NCBI RefSeq assembly: GCF_055900595.2
Contig: NZ_JBVWEU010000005.1
Direction: 5' to 3' (one strand)
Source of the DNA: a plasmid
DNA: 40,586 bases
The notes under the pieces: generated by a model
Told to the model about the DNA's origin: nothing
What the model saw: only the letters and a program-made list of their open reading frames with translations
Databases searched by the model: none
Made by a program: the position numbers and the translations under genes
In this document: piece by piece, positions 3,429-11,230 of the stretch
Numbering within the stretch: position 1 is the stretch's first letter
Layout of the letters: each line of letters starts with the position of its first letter

Positions 3429-5459
3429 TTAAGCGCGTTTTATGGGGTTATAGTTTGGACTACCTTTAATATCTGGGTACGACTCCTTACAATTGGGATA
3501 ACCACTGCAAGACCAGAAGTGACCGGATTTTTTGGACGGACGACGAATAAGTCCTTTACCACATACCTTGCATTTGTACTTGTCAGAAATTTGCACACCA
3601 CCGGCAACTTTGATAGCTCCGGCATTAATAACCTTAATCTGCTCTCGTACAAATTTTTCCTGAATCTTCACAAAAGAATCAACGTCACGTTTCCCCTGCT
3701 CTATTTCCAGTAACATACGTTCGTTGATGGCTGTCATTACCGGGCTTTTAACAAGTTCTGGCAGAATGGCTATCAGCCCCCTTCCCAGCTTGGTACTGAT
3801 AATGTCTTTGCCTTTGTTTTCAATAAAACCACGTTTCTTTAAATCAGCAACAATTGTGGCGCGGGTAGCTGATGTGCCAATACCATCACCTTCCCGCAGT
3901 AATTTTTTCTGAGCCGGGTCTTCAACATACTTATGAATATTTTCCATTGCAGTGTTGAGTGTACCGTCATTAAAACGACGCGGAGCTTTAGTTTTAGCAT
4001 CCTGCCGCTGTGCCTGAGCACAAATAATTTCGTCACCATTTCTCATTGATGGAAGAGTCTGTTCAGACTCATTTTCTTTTTCTTCTTCATCCTCTCCATC
4101 TGAATAAACATCCTTCCATCCATTTTTAGTCGTTACGCGACCACCGGCCCCAAATGTTTCACCATTAACATCAATAATAATTGATGTCGCTTTATATTCA
4201 TGTACTGGATAAAATTGAGCCAAGTATGTTCTTACGATAAGGTCGTAAATATTACGCTCTTCTGGCGTAAGCCTTTCAACGTTACCTTTGTGCATCGTTG
4301 GGATAATGCCGTGATGCGCTGTAACCTTAGAGTCATCAAAAGTTTTTGATTTTACTTTTGGATCAGCCTTATCGATTAGAGCAGCTATTCCCGGATAAGT
4401 AACCCGAAGAGAATCCAGAATTTGAGGTGCATCTGCGTGTTGAGATTCAGGCAAATAAGAACTATCAGAACGTGGATAACTGGTAAGTTTATGCGTTTCA
4501 TAAAGAGACTGGCATATAGCCAGCACTTGCTCACCAGAATAACCAAACTTACTTGAAGCAACAGCGGTGATACTGCCAAGAGAATAGGCTTTTGGATGAT
4601 ATTTTTTCTTTGGCTCTTGCTTATATTCAACAACCTTACCGGATTTTCCGGTTAAAGCCGCTACTAGCTTATCAGCTTCTTTAGTGTCAATAAGCCTTCC
4701 CTCTGAATCAAGCCCTGGCTGATCTTCTCTGGCCTGCCATGCCGCAACAAACGCTCCTTTGTCATGTTTAAAGACAGCTTTAATATTGTGATAAGGAATT
4801 GGTTTGAAGTTTTCAATTTCGAGATCGCGGGCAACAACAAGTGCCAGCGTTGGTGTCTGAACTCGCCCGACCGTCAACAGAACACGCGAGCCACCACGCG
4901 CTGCCGACAACGTGAATCCTCTTGAAAGGTTCATTCCAACCAACCAGTCAGCCCGACCACGCGCAAGAGCTGCACGTCCAAAATTTACATATTTATCGTT
5001 GTTCTCAAGTCCTTTCAACGCCCTTGTGACACTTACCGTATCATTCGCATTACACCAGTAACGCAGAACCGGTTTAGTACATCCCATGTCATCAAGGATT
5101 TCATCAACCAGTAACTGCCCCTCGCGATCTGGATCGCCAGCATTTACAATCGTGTCAGCTCGCTCAACCAAATGCTGGATGGTTTTCAGCTGTTTCTCAG
5201 CATCTTCACGAGGATTAATAATCCATTTTTCGGGGATAATTGGCAGTTCATCTTCTCGCCAGATTTTTTTACCGCTTTCATTACGAGGCACATTGTCTGG
5301 TGTATATTCATCAGGTTCAGCCTGCTCAAACATATGACCAAAACACCAAGTCACATAGTCACTGCCGCACTCAATGTAACCGTCTTTTTTATTGGTTGCG
5401 CCTAATACCTCAGCGATAGCCCTTGCAACCGTCGGTTTTTCTGCAATAAATACTCTCAT
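3429..5459 (-). CDS. traE: DNA topoisomerase III (TraE-like), with C-terminal zinc ribbon
   Basis: 676 aa; N-terminal Toprim (MRVFIAEKPTVARAIAEVLG), C-terminal CxxC...C..C; strong SD (GGGAG); position as in RP4 Tra1. Confidence 0.85.
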   Translation of the reverse strand: MRVFIAEKPTVARAIAEVLGATNKKDGYIECGSDYVTWCFGHMFEQAEPDEYTPDNVPRNESGKKIWREDELPIIPEKWIINPREDAEKQLKTIQHLVERADTIVNAGDPDREGQLLVDEILDDMGCTKPVLRYWCNANDTVSVTRALKGLENNDKYVNFGRAALARGRADWLVGMNLSRGFTLSAARGGSRVLLTVGRVQTPTLALVVARDLEIENFKPIPYHNIKAVFKHDKGAFVAAWQAREDQPGLDSEGRLIDTKEADKLVAALTGKSGKVVEYKQEPKKKYHPKAYSLGSITAVASSKFGYSGEQVLAICQSLYETHKLTSYPRSDSSYLPESQHADAPQILDSLRVTYPGIAALIDKADPKVKSKTFDDSKVTAHHGIIPTMHKGNVERLTPEERNIYDLIVRTYLAQFYPVHEYKATSIIIDVNGETFGAGGRVTTKNGWKDVYSDGEDEEEKENESEQTLPSMRNGDEIICAQAQRQDAKTKAPRRFNDGTLNTAMENIHKYVEDPAQKKLLREGDGIGTSATRATIVADLKKRGFIENKGKDIISTKLGRGLIAILPELVKSPVMTAINERMLLEIEQGKRDVDSFVKIQEKFVREQIKVINAGAIKVAGGVQISDKYKCKVCGKGLIRRPSKKSGHFWSCSGYPNCKESYPDIKGSPNYNPIKRA

Positions 5460-5566: not shown

Positions 5567-6100
5567 TTACCAGGTCATTACAGGTAATATCGTAGAAATA
5601 ATCTGTGACTTTGTGACCGCGCCGAAATATCTCCCGTCAAATGAAGATGCGCTGCGGTCAGTCATCAGCAACAGTTCTGATTTACCCAACGTGTACACTT
5701 CACGAATGGCGGGCAGTTTACGCCCGCCCGGATCAACACTTAACGGCTTGCTGTAAGGCAATAACTGTCCGTTGACGTAAACACCATCATCACGAAAAGC
5801 AACTTCATCACCTTTAGCCGCTAAAATCCGCTTCATCATCTCGCCATACCCCCCTGGACAAAAGCCGCTGCCGATGTAACCACGCTTCTGTGCCAGTGAG
5901 AAAATAGCCTTTTCAGGCGGGCAGAAAATTACATAGTCGCCCTTCTCTGGCGCTTTCTGGCTGATTTTGTACAAGCCAACAGGGATACTTTTCGTGGTAT
6001 TGATGCGTAACCCGGCGGCATATCCAAAGCCACACACAACTGCACCAATCAATGAAGCCGAAATAACACCAATGGCGGCATAGCGGGTCATTTTTTTCAT
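5567..6100 (-). CDS. traF: TraF pilin-maturation peptidase (signal peptidase-like)
   Basis: 177 aa, N-terminal TM segment, 4-bp overlap with traG stop; position conserved downstream of traG. Confidence 0.75.
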   Translation of the reverse strand: MKKMTRYAAIGVISASLIGAVVCGFGYAAGLRINTTKSIPVGLYKISQKAPEKGDYVIFCPPEKAIFSLAQKRGYIGSGFCPGGYGEMMKRILAAKGDEVAFRDDGVYVNGQLLPYSKPLSVDPGGRKLPAIREVYTLGKSELLLMTDRSASSFDGRYFGAVTKSQIISTILPVMTW

Positions 6101-8040
6101 ATTGCGATAGCCTCATTACTGGCGTCATCATTCGCGGCAGCTACAGCTCGAATCCGATCGGTAACTTTTGGTGCAGGTACAGAAGCACGAAGCGAGAAAA
6201 TCTCATCTTGGAAAAACAACGGCTGTTTTCCATAGATAGCCGGAAAACCTGCCACATAAATAACCATGTCACCGCGCTCGGTAATCAGACCTTCAGCATT
6301 CTTCTTAGGTCCTGGCATACGCAGGCATTCATCCACTGTCAGAAGTGGGCGCTGTACTTCCTGAATGGTTTTGGATACTCCACCCAATATCGCACTGGCA
6401 CGTTTCCCGCTGGTTGTGATCTGCTCTTTGATAACCGTTGTCTGTCCAGTCAACTTAGAAAGGTGCTCTGCAGTCTCAGTACGGTTAGGTGGATATGCGT
6501 TCTGCACATGGCAGTTAGAGGTTATTGTTTCATCCGGCCCATAACCTGTTTCACGGCTACGCAACTGATTAATATCCTGGCAGATGAGGTAGAACTTGAT
6601 GCCATAACCTGCAAGGAAAGCCAATGATTCCTGAATGATTTCGAGTTTACCCAGACTTGGAAACTCATCGATCATTCCCAGAAGACGATGTTTGTAGGTT
6701 TTCTTTGTCTGTACTCTTTTTGTTCCCTGAACTGAAAAACCAAACGCCTGTTTAAAACGCTGCCATAACGTAAGGTTGTTATCTACACGCTCAAATTCCA
6801 TCTTGTCAGCCAGCAAACGAACAATCATGTTCAGCATGATTCGTACCAGCGGACGCAGACGAGCTTTATCATTAGGCTGAGTAACGATATACAGCGAAAC
6901 CGGATCATCATGATTCATCAGGTCTTTTATTTTAAAATGTGACTCACTGACGTTACGAGCCACAACTGGATCACGGAAAAGGGCGAGATAAGATTTTGCG
7001 GTAGACAGCACGGAACCGGCTTCTTCTTCCGGGCGGTCCATCATGTCACGACCGGCAGCCCCCACCACCGGATGATTCTCGCCATTTATGTGACTATATT
7101 GCGTCATTTCCATCCACAATTCCCCTGCCCCTCTTTCCGGGTCGGCCATGATGGAGTCAACATACGGAAGCGTTGCTGGCGTACCTTCATTTTTGTGCTT
7201 GTAAAGTACATGGAGGATCACACCGACTAAAAGCGCCTGGGATGTTTTCTGCCAGTGGTCATTTAGTCCTTTACCGTCCGGGTCAACTATCAGCGTGGCA
7301 AGATTCTGAACGTCGCCAACTTCGTTTTCAGTGCCCACACGGATTTCATCAAGAGGATTCCAAGCGACGGAACCATTAGCTGCAGCAGGTTCGAATTTCA
7401 GACACAGATTCTTGGCATATTCTTTACGCCAGCCCGCCGTCATCGCCCACAGTTCACCTTTAAGGTCAGCCACTACCGTTGAATGTTTCCAGGAAAGCAA
7501 GGTGGGAACAACCAGGCCGACACCTTTGCCAGAACGGGTAGGTGCATACGTCAGAACATGTTCCGGGCCGTTGTGACGCAGATACCGCAACTGACCGTTT
7601 TTGTCTTCCCACGCACCAACATAAACACCTTCATCATTCAGCAAACCAGCATCTCTGATATCCTGCTCATCAGCCCATCTTGCAGAGCCATGAAGATATT
7701 CGTTAGCCTTGGATGAATTTGCTTTCATCATACTTGTCAGCGCGGTCAGAACTAGGCCACCGGCAGCAACCGCCGCCCCCACACTGCCAGCAGCAAAAAA
7801 CGCATCAGGTAAGCGCTCATGCCATGCTGAATACCATTTGAAATAGGACCACGGCGCATAGATGTGATTAAAGTTCGGCCCCAACAGTTCCTGATAATTA
7901 AAGCTGTAAGCAAAATACTGTGTGGCGGCCTGAATGCCAGCCGCCAGTGAAGTTATAGCCATCGCCGGGATCAGTTTCCCTTTCGCTGCCTTCTTTTTAT
8001 TACGGACCTGCGGCCCTACGGCATTATTTGGCTTTCTCAT
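6097..8040 (-). CDS. traG: type IV coupling protein (TraG/VirD4 family ATPase)
   Basis: 647 aa, N-terminal TM segments, Walker A-like PTRSGKGVG; perfect SD AAGGAG upstream. Confidence 0.9.
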   Translation of the reverse strand: MRKPNNAVGPQVRNKKKAAKGKLIPAMAITSLAAGIQAATQYFAYSFNYQELLGPNFNHIYAPWSYFKWYSAWHERLPDAFFAAGSVGAAVAAGGLVLTALTSMMKANSSKANEYLHGSARWADEQDIRDAGLLNDEGVYVGAWEDKNGQLRYLRHNGPEHVLTYAPTRSGKGVGLVVPTLLSWKHSTVVADLKGELWAMTAGWRKEYAKNLCLKFEPAAANGSVAWNPLDEIRVGTENEVGDVQNLATLIVDPDGKGLNDHWQKTSQALLVGVILHVLYKHKNEGTPATLPYVDSIMADPERGAGELWMEMTQYSHINGENHPVVGAAGRDMMDRPEEEAGSVLSTAKSYLALFRDPVVARNVSESHFKIKDLMNHDDPVSLYIVTQPNDKARLRPLVRIMLNMIVRLLADKMEFERVDNNLTLWQRFKQAFGFSVQGTKRVQTKKTYKHRLLGMIDEFPSLGKLEIIQESLAFLAGYGIKFYLICQDINQLRSRETGYGPDETITSNCHVQNAYPPNRTETAEHLSKLTGQTTVIKEQITTSGKRASAILGGVSKTIQEVQRPLLTVDECLRMPGPKKNAEGLITERGDMVIYVAGFPAIYGKQPLFFQDEIFSLRASVPAPKVTDRIRAVAAANDDASNEAIAI

Positions 8041-8212
8041 GGACTTGCTCCTTTATGTTCCAGTCATCAGCGGTGACGTCCATCACGTTTAACAGTTGTT
8101 GAACCTTGCCTGTATTCAGGCTGGCTTCGTTTGGGTTTCCTGCCAATGCACCACCATGCCCCGTATTTAGCATGGCGAGTAACAGCCCTAATTCTTCGGA
8201 ATTTTGTTTCAT
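8024..8212 (-). CDS. small Gly-rich ORF bridging the traI stop and traG start
   Basis: 62-aa ORF; its start overlaps the traI stop and its end overlaps the traG start. Could be real (translational coupling) or chance. Confidence 0.25.
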   Translation of the reverse strand: MKQNSEELGLLLAMLNTGHGGALAGNPNEASLNTGKVQQLLNVMDVTADDWNIKEQVHEKAK

Positions 8213-10842
8213 CGACTTCTTCCTTTCGTTGTCCTAACTGAACCGGAAGGGGTAAGTGTGACTGACTCCCCGACTTTAAGATTGCTCAGTCTCCGGGCGG
8301 TGTAATCGCTGACAGGCATCACAACAATTTCATCATCCCGTTTTAGCAGGGCTAACGTTTCCAGCCCGCTTTTACGTTGGCCTGCATACTCAAACAGACC
8401 TTTATCAGTAGAATTATACCCTCTATGTTTCGGTATATCGAACCCTTTAAGGCGTTTTTGCTCACGTTCATTGATATATTTTTCAGCACTACTCAGCGGT
8501 TTCTTAACCTCAGCAGGTGTTGTTATTCCTCCTGCCCCAGCCATATCCCGTCGCAGTTGATCAGCACATTCGGCTGTTTTGTGCTCCAGCTGGTCAGAAA
8601 CATTACCCTGCAATAACACTTCACTTCCTCCGGCGATGCGAACCATACCGAGTTCGGACATTGCTCGCAGACGGTTTTTTGCTGTGGGCGGCGGCTGGCG
8701 TCCAGGTCGCGCAACGTTGGGCTTACTATGTCCTCGTTCGCCATTTGGTTCGGCTGCTCGACTTCTCCCTGTACGGGTGTCATCACTCCTTCCTGGCTGG
8801 CTTCCTGCTGTAGTAACAGCATCGCCTGAGCCAATTCGTCTTCTGCTGCTGCTGGTTCCATATCCGTTTCCGGCATCAGCGGAGGTGCTTCGTCCTGTGA
8901 CTCCTGGCTCATTTGCTCCAGTAGCATTGCCATTACCGCTTCGTTCTCGTCCTGCATCGGTTCGTTCTGTTCCGGCATATCTTTGTCGTCTTTGTTCATT
9001 GTCTTTTCCCTCATTCATTCGGATAAAGTTTTCAATCCGATCTCTGGTTGCGTAAGGACCGACAAACCAGGATTTCTTTTCGGTGTCCCACATGGCTCCG
9101 GCTTGCCGGGCCTTGCCTCTTTGCTCAAAGGGGATGTGGATGTATTCACGCTCGCGGGCCGCTTTCTTAGCCAGAATTTGCCTCAACTTTTCCAGTTCAG
9201 GATCGGCAAATGACACGTCCAGCTCACGCGCAGCGGCTACAGCTACAATGCGTTTTTTAAATTCAAAACTGCCGTTAACGGTGAGTTTGTCTCCGTAACG
9301 GTGTTTAGCCATCAGCAGTGCGGCATGAAGACCGTCATCACCAGCATCACGTGATACATCCAGACGTTTACCACCGTCACGGATAGCACTCTCTCCCACG
9401 CGGTAAATAATCGTCCCTTCCTTCGTTACGCTGTCCGGTTTCAATCCAGGGATACGGCCATCTTTTTTGACTTTATCGCCATGCAGAATGTTGGCCTCTT
9501 TACGAGCCCGTTGTGCATTCCGCTGGCGTAAAATTTTTAGCGCTTCATCATCACCACCTGCGGCTTTGAACTGCAGCCAGTCAGCCCATGTACGGCGTTT
9601 ATGAATGTCATAAGCTGCCTGCCGGTCTTTTTTATAAATGGCATTTGCCCGTTCAAGTTCTTCCCCAAGCGCCTTACTTGCCAGACCATATAAATGGCGT
9701 TTATTCACACCCGGTCCTTTCAGTAACTTGATAGCTGCCCGCTTTAACCGGCCTGTCCTTTTGGCATTTTCAATGAGGCGATCACGTTTAACCTTTGCCA
9801 GACGCAGCGCTTCGTTACGGGCAGCAGTAAGCCGTTGCTGTTCACTCTGGTAGCGCCCGTAAAGAACTGAGGTACTTGCACCCTGAGAACCCAGCGGTTT
9901 GCCCTCATAGCGTTTACCACTGTTAATCGACATAACGGGAATCTCCCCAAGGTGAACCTGTCGGTTTTCACGAATTGGTGGGGGGCGTTCTCCGGGCCGC
10001 TTAACATGTACAGCTGAACCGAATCGTTGTTTAATCGCTTCTGGGGAAAGTCTGGAAGGTTTCGTGTCGGGTATGGAAGACTCAAACGAGCCTAATTTCT
10101 TTTCAAGCGCTGCTCGGGACAGAGAGCGATCTACAGAGCTGGCTTTTACAGCAAGGCCATCGGGACCAGTAATAACGAATCCATTCCCTTTCTGGCGTAA
10201 CTCAAGCCCATTCTGGCGCATTGCCTGATGTAACTCTTGCCAGTTAGCCGCTCTCTTTAATTGATCTGCGCACTCCCTCTTTATCCAGCCAAGCAAACTT
10301 TCTCTGCCGGAATGCCTTTCCATATCTGCCGCATTATTTTCGGATCGCGTCTTACTTGCCCGGTGATTATCGCTTTCAAGGCCAAATTCCTTTTCGAGTG
10401 CCATACATACCGCTGAACGGGTTTTGTAATCGTTGTAGGGGGTATGAATGTTGTAAGTTTGTGGATGGATTTTATTTATAGCGATATGGATATGCACATT
10501 ATCAGTGTCGTAATGAACAGCACTGACACGCTGATGATCGGCATACCCCATAGCCGCGCAGATACGTTCTTCTACAGCATCCAGAACCTCCTGTGACGGT
10601 TTTTCTCCAGGACGAAAGGAAACGATAAGGTGATAGGTCTTGTCGCCCGCTGCGCGCGTATTACGCCGTTGTGTAGGCTCAATCTCATAACGGGCCGCAT
10701 CAAGGATATTTTCATGATGACAGTTCGTAACCTTAATAGCACCCACGCGCTCCTGTTTGTTTTGGGGATCTTGCACATACTTGGCAAGCTCAACAAAACT
10801 ACTCTTTTTGACATTTCGCATTGGGATGTGACGCGAAATCAC
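8209..10842 (-). CDS. traI: TraI relaxase (MOBP family) with long Gly/Ser/Arg-rich C-terminal extension
   Basis: N-terminus MISRHIPMRNVKKSSF...VTNC and HYDTDNVHIHIAINKIH match the IncP TraI signature; start codon is GTG (plus-strand CAC at 10840-10842). Confidence 0.9.
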   Translation of the reverse strand: MISRHIPMRNVKKSSFVELAKYVQDPQNKQERVGAIKVTNCHHENILDAARYEIEPTQRRNTRAAGDKTYHLIVSFRPGEKPSQEVLDAVEERICAAMGYADHQRVSAVHYDTDNVHIHIAINKIHPQTYNIHTPYNDYKTRSAVCMALEKEFGLESDNHRASKTRSENNAADMERHSGRESLLGWIKRECADQLKRAANWQELHQAMRQNGLELRQKGNGFVITGPDGLAVKASSVDRSLSRAALEKKLGSFESSIPDTKPSRLSPEAIKQRFGSAVHVKRPGERPPPIRENRQVHLGEIPVMSINSGKRYEGKPLGSQGASTSVLYGRYQSEQQRLTAARNEALRLAKVKRDRLIENAKRTGRLKRAAIKLLKGPGVNKRHLYGLASKALGEELERANAIYKKDRQAAYDIHKRRTWADWLQFKAAGGDDEALKILRQRNAQRARKEANILHGDKVKKDGRIPGLKPDSVTKEGTIIYRVGESAIRDGGKRLDVSRDAGDDGLHAALLMAKHRYGDKLTVNGSFEFKKRIVAVAAARELDVSFADPELEKLRQILAKKAAREREYIHIPFEQRGKARQAGAMWDTEKKSWFVGPYATRDRIENFIRMNEGKDNEQRRQRYAGTERTDAGRERSGNGNATGANEPGVTGRSTSADAGNGYGTSSSRRRIGSGDAVTTAGSQPGRSDDTRTGRSRAAEPNGERGHSKPNVARPGRQPPPTAKNRLRAMSELGMVRIAGGSEVLLQGNVSDQLEHKTAECADQLRRDMAGAGGITTPAEVKKPLSSAEKYINEREQKRLKGFDIPKHRGYNSTDKGLFEYAGQRKSGLETLALLKRDDEIVVMPVSDYTARRLSNLKVGESVTLTPSGSVRTTKGRSR
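8523..9014 (-). CDS. traH: TraH-like acidic protein encoded in an alternate frame inside traI
   Basis: 163-aa highly acidic ORF (E/D/Q-rich), same strand as traI but a different frame; RP4 has traH nested in traI in the same way. Confidence 0.45.
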   Translation of the reverse strand: MREKTMNKDDKDMPEQNEPMQDENEAVMAMLLEQMSQESQDEAPPLMPETDMEPAAAEDELAQAMLLLQQEASQEGVMTPVQGEVEQPNQMANEDIVSPTLRDLDASRRPQQKTVCEQCPNSVWFASPEEVKCYCRVMFLTSWSTKQPNVLINCDGIWLGQEE

Positions 10843-10870: not shown

Positions 10871-11230
10871 TCATTTGATCAGTATCCTATCCATTACTGT
10901 TCGTAGCTCGTTTTGGGTTGACTCAATTTTTGCCAAAAGAGTTTTGATTAGTGACACGGAAAAATTACGGGTTCTCTCGTCATTGGAAAGCCACAACTTC
11001 AGTAATCCGCCAAGTCGACCTAAATCACCATTTACCCGACTCAGCTCCTGAACCTGTTCAATATCGACCATGGATTCCACTTCATAACCCATTCCAACCT
11101 TACGCAGAAATGCGGCAGTGCTCAGTCCAGCGGCATCTGCGTTGCGCTTAATGATCGCTTCTTCTTCTGGCAGAACTGGCACACGAATGTGCTTGCCATG
11201 CTTACGTGTAGTTTTCACTTGTTCCGTCAT
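10871..11230 (-). CDS. traJ: TraJ oriT-recognition protein
   Basis: 119 aa, directly flanking oriT upstream of traI; SD GAGGT. Confidence 0.8.
   Translation of the reverse strand: MTEQVKTTRKHGKHIRVPVLPEEEAIIKRNADAAGLSTAAFLRKVGMGYEVESMVDIEQVQELSRVNGDLGRLGGLLKLWLSNDERTRNFSVSLIKTLLAKIESTQNELRTVMDRILIK

Follow-up and report, generated by a model that had tools for sequence, protein, structure and literature searches.

The 40,586-nt window analysed here, a stretch of plasmid DNA (NCBI RefSeq assembly GCF_055900595.2, contig NZ_JBVWEU010000005.1), carries a 163-codon open reading frame (ORF) inside the relaxase gene traI. The ORF lies wholly within traI on the same strand at an offset of 1828 nt, which places it in frame +1, and a TGA stop codon in its frame stands directly upstream of its first ATG. 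It covers TraI residues 610–773, the linker between the Pfam domains DUF5710 (residues 565–606) and TraI-like_C (residues 786–870). The initial annotation, made from the letters of the DNA, had described this ORF as an acidic, TraH-like protein nested in an alternate frame over the Gly/Ser/Arg-rich part of TraI. The ORF list and the composition bore this out: the nested frame encodes 13.5% Glu, 10.4% Gln, and 6.7% Asp (31% together), and its product (158–163 amino acids) has a pI of 4.05 and a net charge of about −22 to −23, whereas the TraI segment encoded by the same DNA has a pI of 10.2 and a net charge of +6. With high confidence, we assign the ORF as a genuine traH gene, probably encoding a 158-amino-acid accessory protein of the relaxosome, in the +1 frame of the traI linker of an IncP-1-like (MOBP11) plasmid. 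Coordinates of the features are given in Table 1.

The C-terminal 66 amino acids of the nested product were 68% identical (45/66, E 7e-36, BLASTP) to TraH of the IncP-1 plasmid R751, the reference being the TraH ORF extracted from NC_001735.4 (locus L095). The two proteins share the same five cysteines, the SPTL motif, and the RRP motif. As in IncP-1 plasmids (RP4/RK2, R751), the gene is small, encodes an acidic protein, and lies within traI, on its strand but in frame +1, after the LPD7 domain and before TraI-like_C; the operon order traJ-traI(traH)-traG-traF is also shared. By sequence, the nested ORF is a homologue of IncP-1 TraH, and the gene is an orthologue in a divergent IncP-1-like clade. 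The TraH identity proposed at the outset therefore held, but what defines the homology is the C-terminal five-cysteine (Cys) domain, the acidic part being alignable in close relatives only. The window protein is longer than its R751 counterpart (158 vs. 130 amino acids), and its acidic N-terminal part could not be aligned with that of R751 beyond a short helix motif and has seemingly been enlarged by small duplications. In addition, unlike most relatives, the window traI has an extra DUF5710 domain just before the overlap. The presence of traH is expected for IncP-1-like plasmids and would be ordinary to a plasmid specialist, although the gene usually goes unannotated.

Table 1. Position of traH, its parts, and neighboring transfer genes in the window.
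Feature	Position	Strand	Basis
Nested traH ORF, 163 amino acids plus stop, ATG start	8523..9014	-	ORF list; frame +1 of traI
Likely traH coding sequence, 158 amino acids, from the second ATG (M6 of the 163-amino-acid ORF)	8523..8999	-	Shine-Dalgarno energy, homologous start
Shine-Dalgarno-like GAGGG, 8 nt before the ATG at 8999, inside the traI coding sequence	9008..9012	-	Duplex energy, relatives
Acidic, largely disordered N-terminal region, net charge about −21	8724..8999	-	Composition, model
Conserved C-terminal domain, SPTLxxL, RRP, CxxC...W...CxC..M...W...CDG	8526..8723	-	Alignment, AlphaFold2
traI, 877-amino-acid MOBP11/IncP-type relaxase, host of traH	8209..10842	-	ORF list, Pfam, NCBIfam
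traJ, oriT-binding relaxosome protein, upstream of traI	10871..11230	-	Pfam, NCBIfam
traG, type IV coupling protein, downstream of traI	6097..8040	-	Pfam

A tblastn search of 72,556 plasmids with the nested ORF matched the C-terminal region of approximately 65 amino acids in 776 records. The matches always lay beneath a traI or relaxase annotation, and where depositors had annotated nested genes, they were labelled traH, "relaxosome stabilization". A word-indexed protein search yielded 214 homologues, several of them named TraH, and a profile search of 1.84 billion cluster representatives yielded 664 clusters (50% identity), 334 of them at E ≤1e-10. Neither a cysteine or zinc domain in TraH nor the spread of TraH beyond IncP was found in literature searches.

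Conservation of the overlapping frame in relatives, which the initial annotation had proposed as a check, was observed from Enterobacteria to Campylobacter. The first set of loci comprised the window clade, IncP-1, Neisseria gonorrhoeae pConj, Campylobacter pTet-type plasmids, small Klebsiella/E. coli Mob plasmids, Acinetobacter, Arsenophonus, and 80 species genomes (Legionella, Burkholderiales, Methylococcales, Desulfobulbus, and Geomonas among them). In all 95 of these loci, a long relaxase ORF runs on the same strand and holds the domain in its +1 frame; R751 and pMBUI8 had a traH/traI frame relation identical to that of the window. The same nesting was found in Pseudomonas plasmids, in a MobQ-type 6-kb plasmid, and in two metagenomic contigs. 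In the Pseudomonas plasmids, the relaxase is split by the Prokaryotic Genome Annotation Pipeline (PGAP), yet the relaxase frame of 1259–1280 codons is continuous. Among about 100 loci, a single exception was detected, a stand-alone metagenomic copy (L102).

The host relaxases were of at least three N-terminal catalytic types: Relaxase + TraI_middle + LPD7 in Pfam terms (MOBP), MobA_MobL (MOBQ), and a type whose N-terminal part has no Pfam match (Pseudomonas/Arsenophonus). The position of the nested gene varied as well. It follows LPD7 in IncP-type relaxases, precedes LPD7 in Acinetobacter, Pseudomonas, and Arsenophonus, and lies at the 3′ end in Campylobacter. This variety of catalytic hosts and of positions relative to LPD7 suggests an old or mobile dual-coding module. 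Representatives are the loci of small E. coli and Klebsiella plasmids of 6–8.6 kb (L007, L098), Campylobacter (L006), Pseudomonas (L096, L097), Acinetobacter (L008), and Arsenophonus (L009).

Several members of the family deviated in architecture. The stand-alone copy (positions 4001–4513 of ERZ27257198 k141_761660) encodes a 170-amino-acid protein with two tandem TraH-like Cys domains; its other two frames are closed by stop codons, and the neighboring genes have no Pfam match. Another protein with two tandem domains (P0170, L101) is encoded inside a relaxase ORF. In the Pseudomonas/Arsenophonus subfamily (L096, 3489–3848; L097, 3498–3917; P0265), the acidic tail is C-terminal to the Cys domain, not N-terminal. 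In this subfamily, PGAP annotates the small ORF and truncates the relaxase.

Selection within the Cys domain was assessed from 84 distinct sequences over 59 aligned codons. Averaged over sequence pairs, the nucleotide difference by TraH codon position (1/2/3) was 0.205/0.214/0.426; counted by TraI codon positions, the overlap gave 0.415/0.195/0.217. As controls, four other domains of these genes (relaxase, TraI_middle, LPD7, and TraI_C) gave about 0.35–0.43/0.28–0.33/0.63–0.66 at TraI positions 1/2/3. The periodicity thus switches to the TraH frame exactly in the overlap. At the amino-acid level, identity of the Cys domain was highest in the TraH frame (0.695), followed by the TraI frame (0.512) and the unused third frame (0.482), and the TraI residues in the overlap are conserved no better than a non-coding frame. 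In the close enterobacterial clade, variable sites at the three TraI codon positions numbered 55, 35, and 227 upstream of the overlap and 6, 5, and 27 downstream, compared with 26, 12, and 16 in the acidic part and 8, 3, and 0 in the Cys domain. Against a Salmonella diarizonae relative, the ratio of nonsynonymous to synonymous substitution rates (dN/dS) of the Cys domain was 0.064 in the TraH frame, indicating purifying selection, vs. 2.5 in the TraI frame; the acidic part gave 0.31 vs. 0.79, respectively, and flanking traI gave 0.08–0.10. In the overlap, it is mainly the TraH frame that is under selection, and the sequence of the TraI linker, with its richness in Gly and Arg, is largely dictated by TraH.

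The opposite charge of the two products follows from the arrangement of the frames. In a +1 overlap, a TraH codon of the type GAN (Asp/Glu) is read as xGA in TraI, where only Arg, Gly, or a stop is possible. All 33 Asp/Glu codons of TraH indeed lie over TraI codons for Gly (17) or Arg (16), and the Gln codons of TraH overlie TraI codons for Thr, Ala, Pro, or Ser. Across 87 loci, the N-terminal region of TraH was net negative in 92% and the co-encoded TraI segment net positive in 95%. The acidic/basic duality exists because the +1 overlap and the genetic code force it, and this mirror composition need not be an independently selected feature of TraI. The Gly/Ser/Arg "low complexity" of the TraI linker is therefore largely a shadow of TraH. 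The dual coding of an acidic and a basic segment had been pointed out in the initial annotation.

The open frame begins at the ATG at position 9014, as given initially, but the probable start of translation is the second ATG (M6, position 8999). The calculated energy of the Shine-Dalgarno duplex was −6.1 kcal/mol at M6 vs. +0.1 kcal/mol at M1. M6 aligns with the start of the family, and in most relatives aAGGAGa stands 6–8 nt ahead of the ATG with which the N-terminal motif begins, in the same place as the site in the window. The 158-amino-acid version occurs among database proteins (P0001, P0002) and in the record OW848976.1, which is not a PGAP annotation and names the product "hypothetical protein". 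An automatic choice of the best Shine-Dalgarno site in the window clade pointed to an internal ATG (M78); this start was rejected in favor of M6 because its GGAG, at a distance of 2 nt, stands too near the ATG.

The domain consensus was SPTLxALDESRRP-x5-C-E-x-C-P-N-S-V-W-F-x7-K-C-Y-C-R-V-M-x-L-x-T-W-S-x9-C-D-G. Five cysteines (C116, C119, C133, C135, and C154 in the 163-amino-acid numbering), one Trp, one Met, and the Asp were invariant. AlphaFold2 modeled the C-terminal domain alone with a predicted local distance difference test score (pLDDT) of 84.8 and a predicted template modeling score (pTM) of 0.73. The predicted fold consists of a short helix at SPTL, a CxxC turn, three antiparallel strands, and a final short helix. 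A CxxC knuckle is followed by predicted β-strands with further invariant cysteines in a domain of about 60 amino acids, as in small metal-binding cysteine-knuckle domains of the zinc-ribbon or treble-clef type. A PDB search with a profile of 122 sequences returned chance matches only (E ≥0.2).

The full-length model was confident just for the C-terminal domain and an N-terminal helix, the remainder being disordered. Two helices were predicted in the N-terminal region, at residues 17–33 and 52–67 (158-amino-acid numbering), with the motif D-E-x-x-A-x-x-A-M-L-L. The N-terminal helix motif (T)EDELIxAALAAL is common to many relatives, and a related motif occurs twice in the window protein. The evidence for an internal duplication of this helix was weak (9/17 residues identical, E 0.01). 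At the nucleotide level, a 23-nt direct repeat (8791–8813/8902–8924, 74% identity, copies 111 nt apart) matches the two helix motifs, and a 21-nt tandem repeat at 8937–8978 (81% identity) encodes MPEQNEP/MQDENEA. The acidic region may have grown by duplication, which could explain the greater length of TraH in the window.

PMC7314908, which cites Pansegrau et al. (1990), describes the acidic TraH of RP4 as the product of another frame within traI that stabilizes the interaction of TraJ with TraI at oriT, and traH as being induced together with traJ and traI. By homology, TraH of the window would be translated on its own from the internal Shine-Dalgarno sequence and the ATG at 8999 and would act as an accessory protein of the relaxosome, contacting TraI and TraJ and stabilizing the TraJ-TraI-oriT complex, rather than as a nicking enzyme. 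The protein would have two parts: a strongly acidic, mostly disordered stretch at the N-terminus, in which one or two short amphipathic helices form, and a compact C-terminal domain with five invariant cysteines. We suppose that the Cys domain gives a specific protein contact, while the acidic tail may contact basic partners, possibly including the TraI linker that it overlaps. The C-terminal domain probably binds a metal ion.

Several points weigh against this assignment. The length of the ORF was judged insufficient as evidence for a gene. The +1 frame of traI is stop-poor throughout, and among 2000 synonymous-codon shuffles of traI, 3.5% were stop-free across the nested span, and in 7.9% frame +1 stayed open for 163 codons or more. 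Expression of traH in this plasmid is predicted from its sequence, and PGAP does not call the gene in the plasmid group to which the window belongs. Scans of the ORF and 16 family members against Pfam, NCBIfam, and PHROGs gave no match to any family model. The acidic part had similar dN/dS values in both frames in two closer pairwise comparisons, so that selection on it is weak and, being equally relaxed in both frames, its constraint is mostly compositional. As for metal binding, it is suggested by the five invariant cysteines of a cytoplasmic 60-amino-acid domain, and no PDB structure matched the predicted fold significantly. Stabilization of the relaxosome is the most likely role, carried over from in vitro work on RP4, and we know of no report that TraH is essential for transfer.

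Since the openness of the frame is only weakly unusual, the case for traH rests on conservation. Were the ORF a by-product of composition, the Gly/Arg/Ser-rich codons of the linker would simply leave frame +1 open and nothing would be made from it; the stop-poor frame, the shuffles, and the other +1 open runs of 124–159 codons in the GC-rich traI of R751 fit this explanation. However, the five-cysteine motif is kept in that very frame across plasmids of Gamma-, Beta-, and Epsilonproteobacteria, identity in the TraI frame is no better there than in a non-coding frame, the periodicity is shifted to the TraH frame, the dN/dS of the TraH frame is 0.06, and the Shine-Dalgarno sequence is conserved, which makes a mere by-product extremely improbable. 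We give equally little credence to ribosomal frameshifting from traI, by which a truncated relaxase ending in the TraH domain would be made and no separate small protein. In two database proteins, P0159 (640 amino acids) and P0180 (637 amino acids), the N-terminus of the relaxase is indeed fused in frame to the TraH domain, but the two switch frame at different places and represent 2 of the 664 clusters, so that they are better explained by indels, frameshift mutations, or sequencing or assembly errors than by programmed frameshifting. In the TraH frame, moreover, a stop directly precedes the first ATG, and the Shine-Dalgarno sequence and ATG are conserved across the family, both of which argue against frameshifting, and TraH of RP4 is reported as a separate small acidic protein in the relevant passage of PMC7314908. 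In-frame joins of relaxase and TraH were rare and had differing junctions; a further one was seen in P0268 (257 amino acids).

The remaining alternative accepts a real relative of TraH but gives it another main role, as an adaptor of the relaxase to TraG and the type IV secretion system (like MobB for MobA in R1162), as a transferred protein, or as a regulator of traI. The retention of the domain in different catalytic families and at different positions would fit a common partner, e.g., a coupling protein of the VirD4/TraG type. MobB, an unrelated analogue that is also nested in frame +1, is said to assist transport of the relaxase (reportedly in work by Parker and Meyer from 2007). Moreover, the RP4 data as presented in PMC7314908 are in vitro only. 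Nothing in the present analysis pointed to binding of TraG, however, and the sole activity reported for the family is stabilization of the relaxosome; we consider a different main role unlikely, though less so than a by-product or frameshifting.

MobB offers a parallel in arrangement. In the IncQ plasmids RSF1010/R1162, this small accessory protein is encoded inside the relaxase gene mobA, in frame +1, in the linker after the nuclease domain, and it has been reported to stabilize the relaxosome. For the comparison, we used the IncQ1 plasmid pQ1 (L099), found by tblastn, in which the MobB gene (2549–2962) lies in frame +1 of mobA at an offset of 748 nt. Homology between the two proteins was rejected: MobB lacks cysteines, and hence the Cys motif, has a hydrophobic C-terminal segment, and aligned with TraH at an hhalign probability of 0.05%. 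By these comparisons, MobB is an analogue of TraH, not a homologue, and nested accessory genes seem to have entered relaxase linkers on more than one occasion. Other small MobQ-type plasmids (L007 and L098) carry a true TraH-type nested gene.

A more general proposal, which we put forward only tentatively, is that the five-cysteine domain of TraH represents a large uncurated family, known nearly exclusively from overlapping genes that without exception occupy frame +1 of a relaxase, and forms an old mobile dual-coding module whose sequence is set by the nested gene and not by the relaxase. Such constant nesting may allow TraH to assemble with the nascent relaxase during translation, or may hold the expression of the two at a fixed ratio. 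If this pattern is true, TraH-type proteins would be a general, overlooked component of relaxosomes, present in conjugative plasmids of N. gonorrhoeae, tetracycline-resistance plasmids of Campylobacter, Legionella, Pseudomonas, and small MobQ plasmids.

For the window itself, the main outcome is a correction of the annotation, a real transfer gene being absent from the PGAP annotations of a clinically common plasmid group that includes carriers of mcr-1 and carbapenemase genes. The gene tables of R751 (NC_001735.4) and of loci L001 and L002, which are incomplete for plasmids, do not list traH; R751, in which the gene was classically described, is thus also without it in RefSeq. Nested genes of the TraH family appear to be systematically under-annotated. 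The locus is a clean and quantifiable case of bacterial same-strand dual coding in which the nested gene dominates selection and the "low-complexity basic linker" of the host gene is accounted for by the genetic code. Beyond the identification of traH, the analysis points to a nested frame that dominates the overlap, to a mirror composition forced by the code, and to an uncurated five-cysteine domain that has no structural relative in the PDB and also occurs in relaxases of the MOBQ and other types.

The window contains a complete IncP-1-like backbone with TrfA, Kor/Inc/Kfr, Trb, and Tra1 genes. Over the 3.3 kb tested, the E. coli plasmid pSTEC2018_607-e was 99.9% identical to the window, and about 110 enterobacterial plasmids of 40–60 kb were 90–96% identical, among them pJJ1886_4, which has been assigned to the MOBP11/IncP1 family (PMC4270462). 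The product of traI was recognized as a TraI/MobA(P) relaxase (NCBIfam NF041893, E 7e-160). The Tra1-type order traJ-traI(traH)-traG-traF was established from Pfam and NCBIfam matches of the neighboring genes together with the annotation of the near-identical plasmid. The DUF5710 domain of TraI (9017–9148, minus strand) sits immediately upstream of the traH start; it is absent in most relatives, the TraI alignment having no well-occupied columns there. A 62-amino-acid ORF (8024–8212, minus strand) lies between traI and traG, with an overlap of 4 nt at the traI stop and of 17 nt at the traG start. Neither Pfam nor NCBIfam gave a match for it; in relatives it is called "hypothetical" and varies in annotated length from 51 to 69 amino acids.

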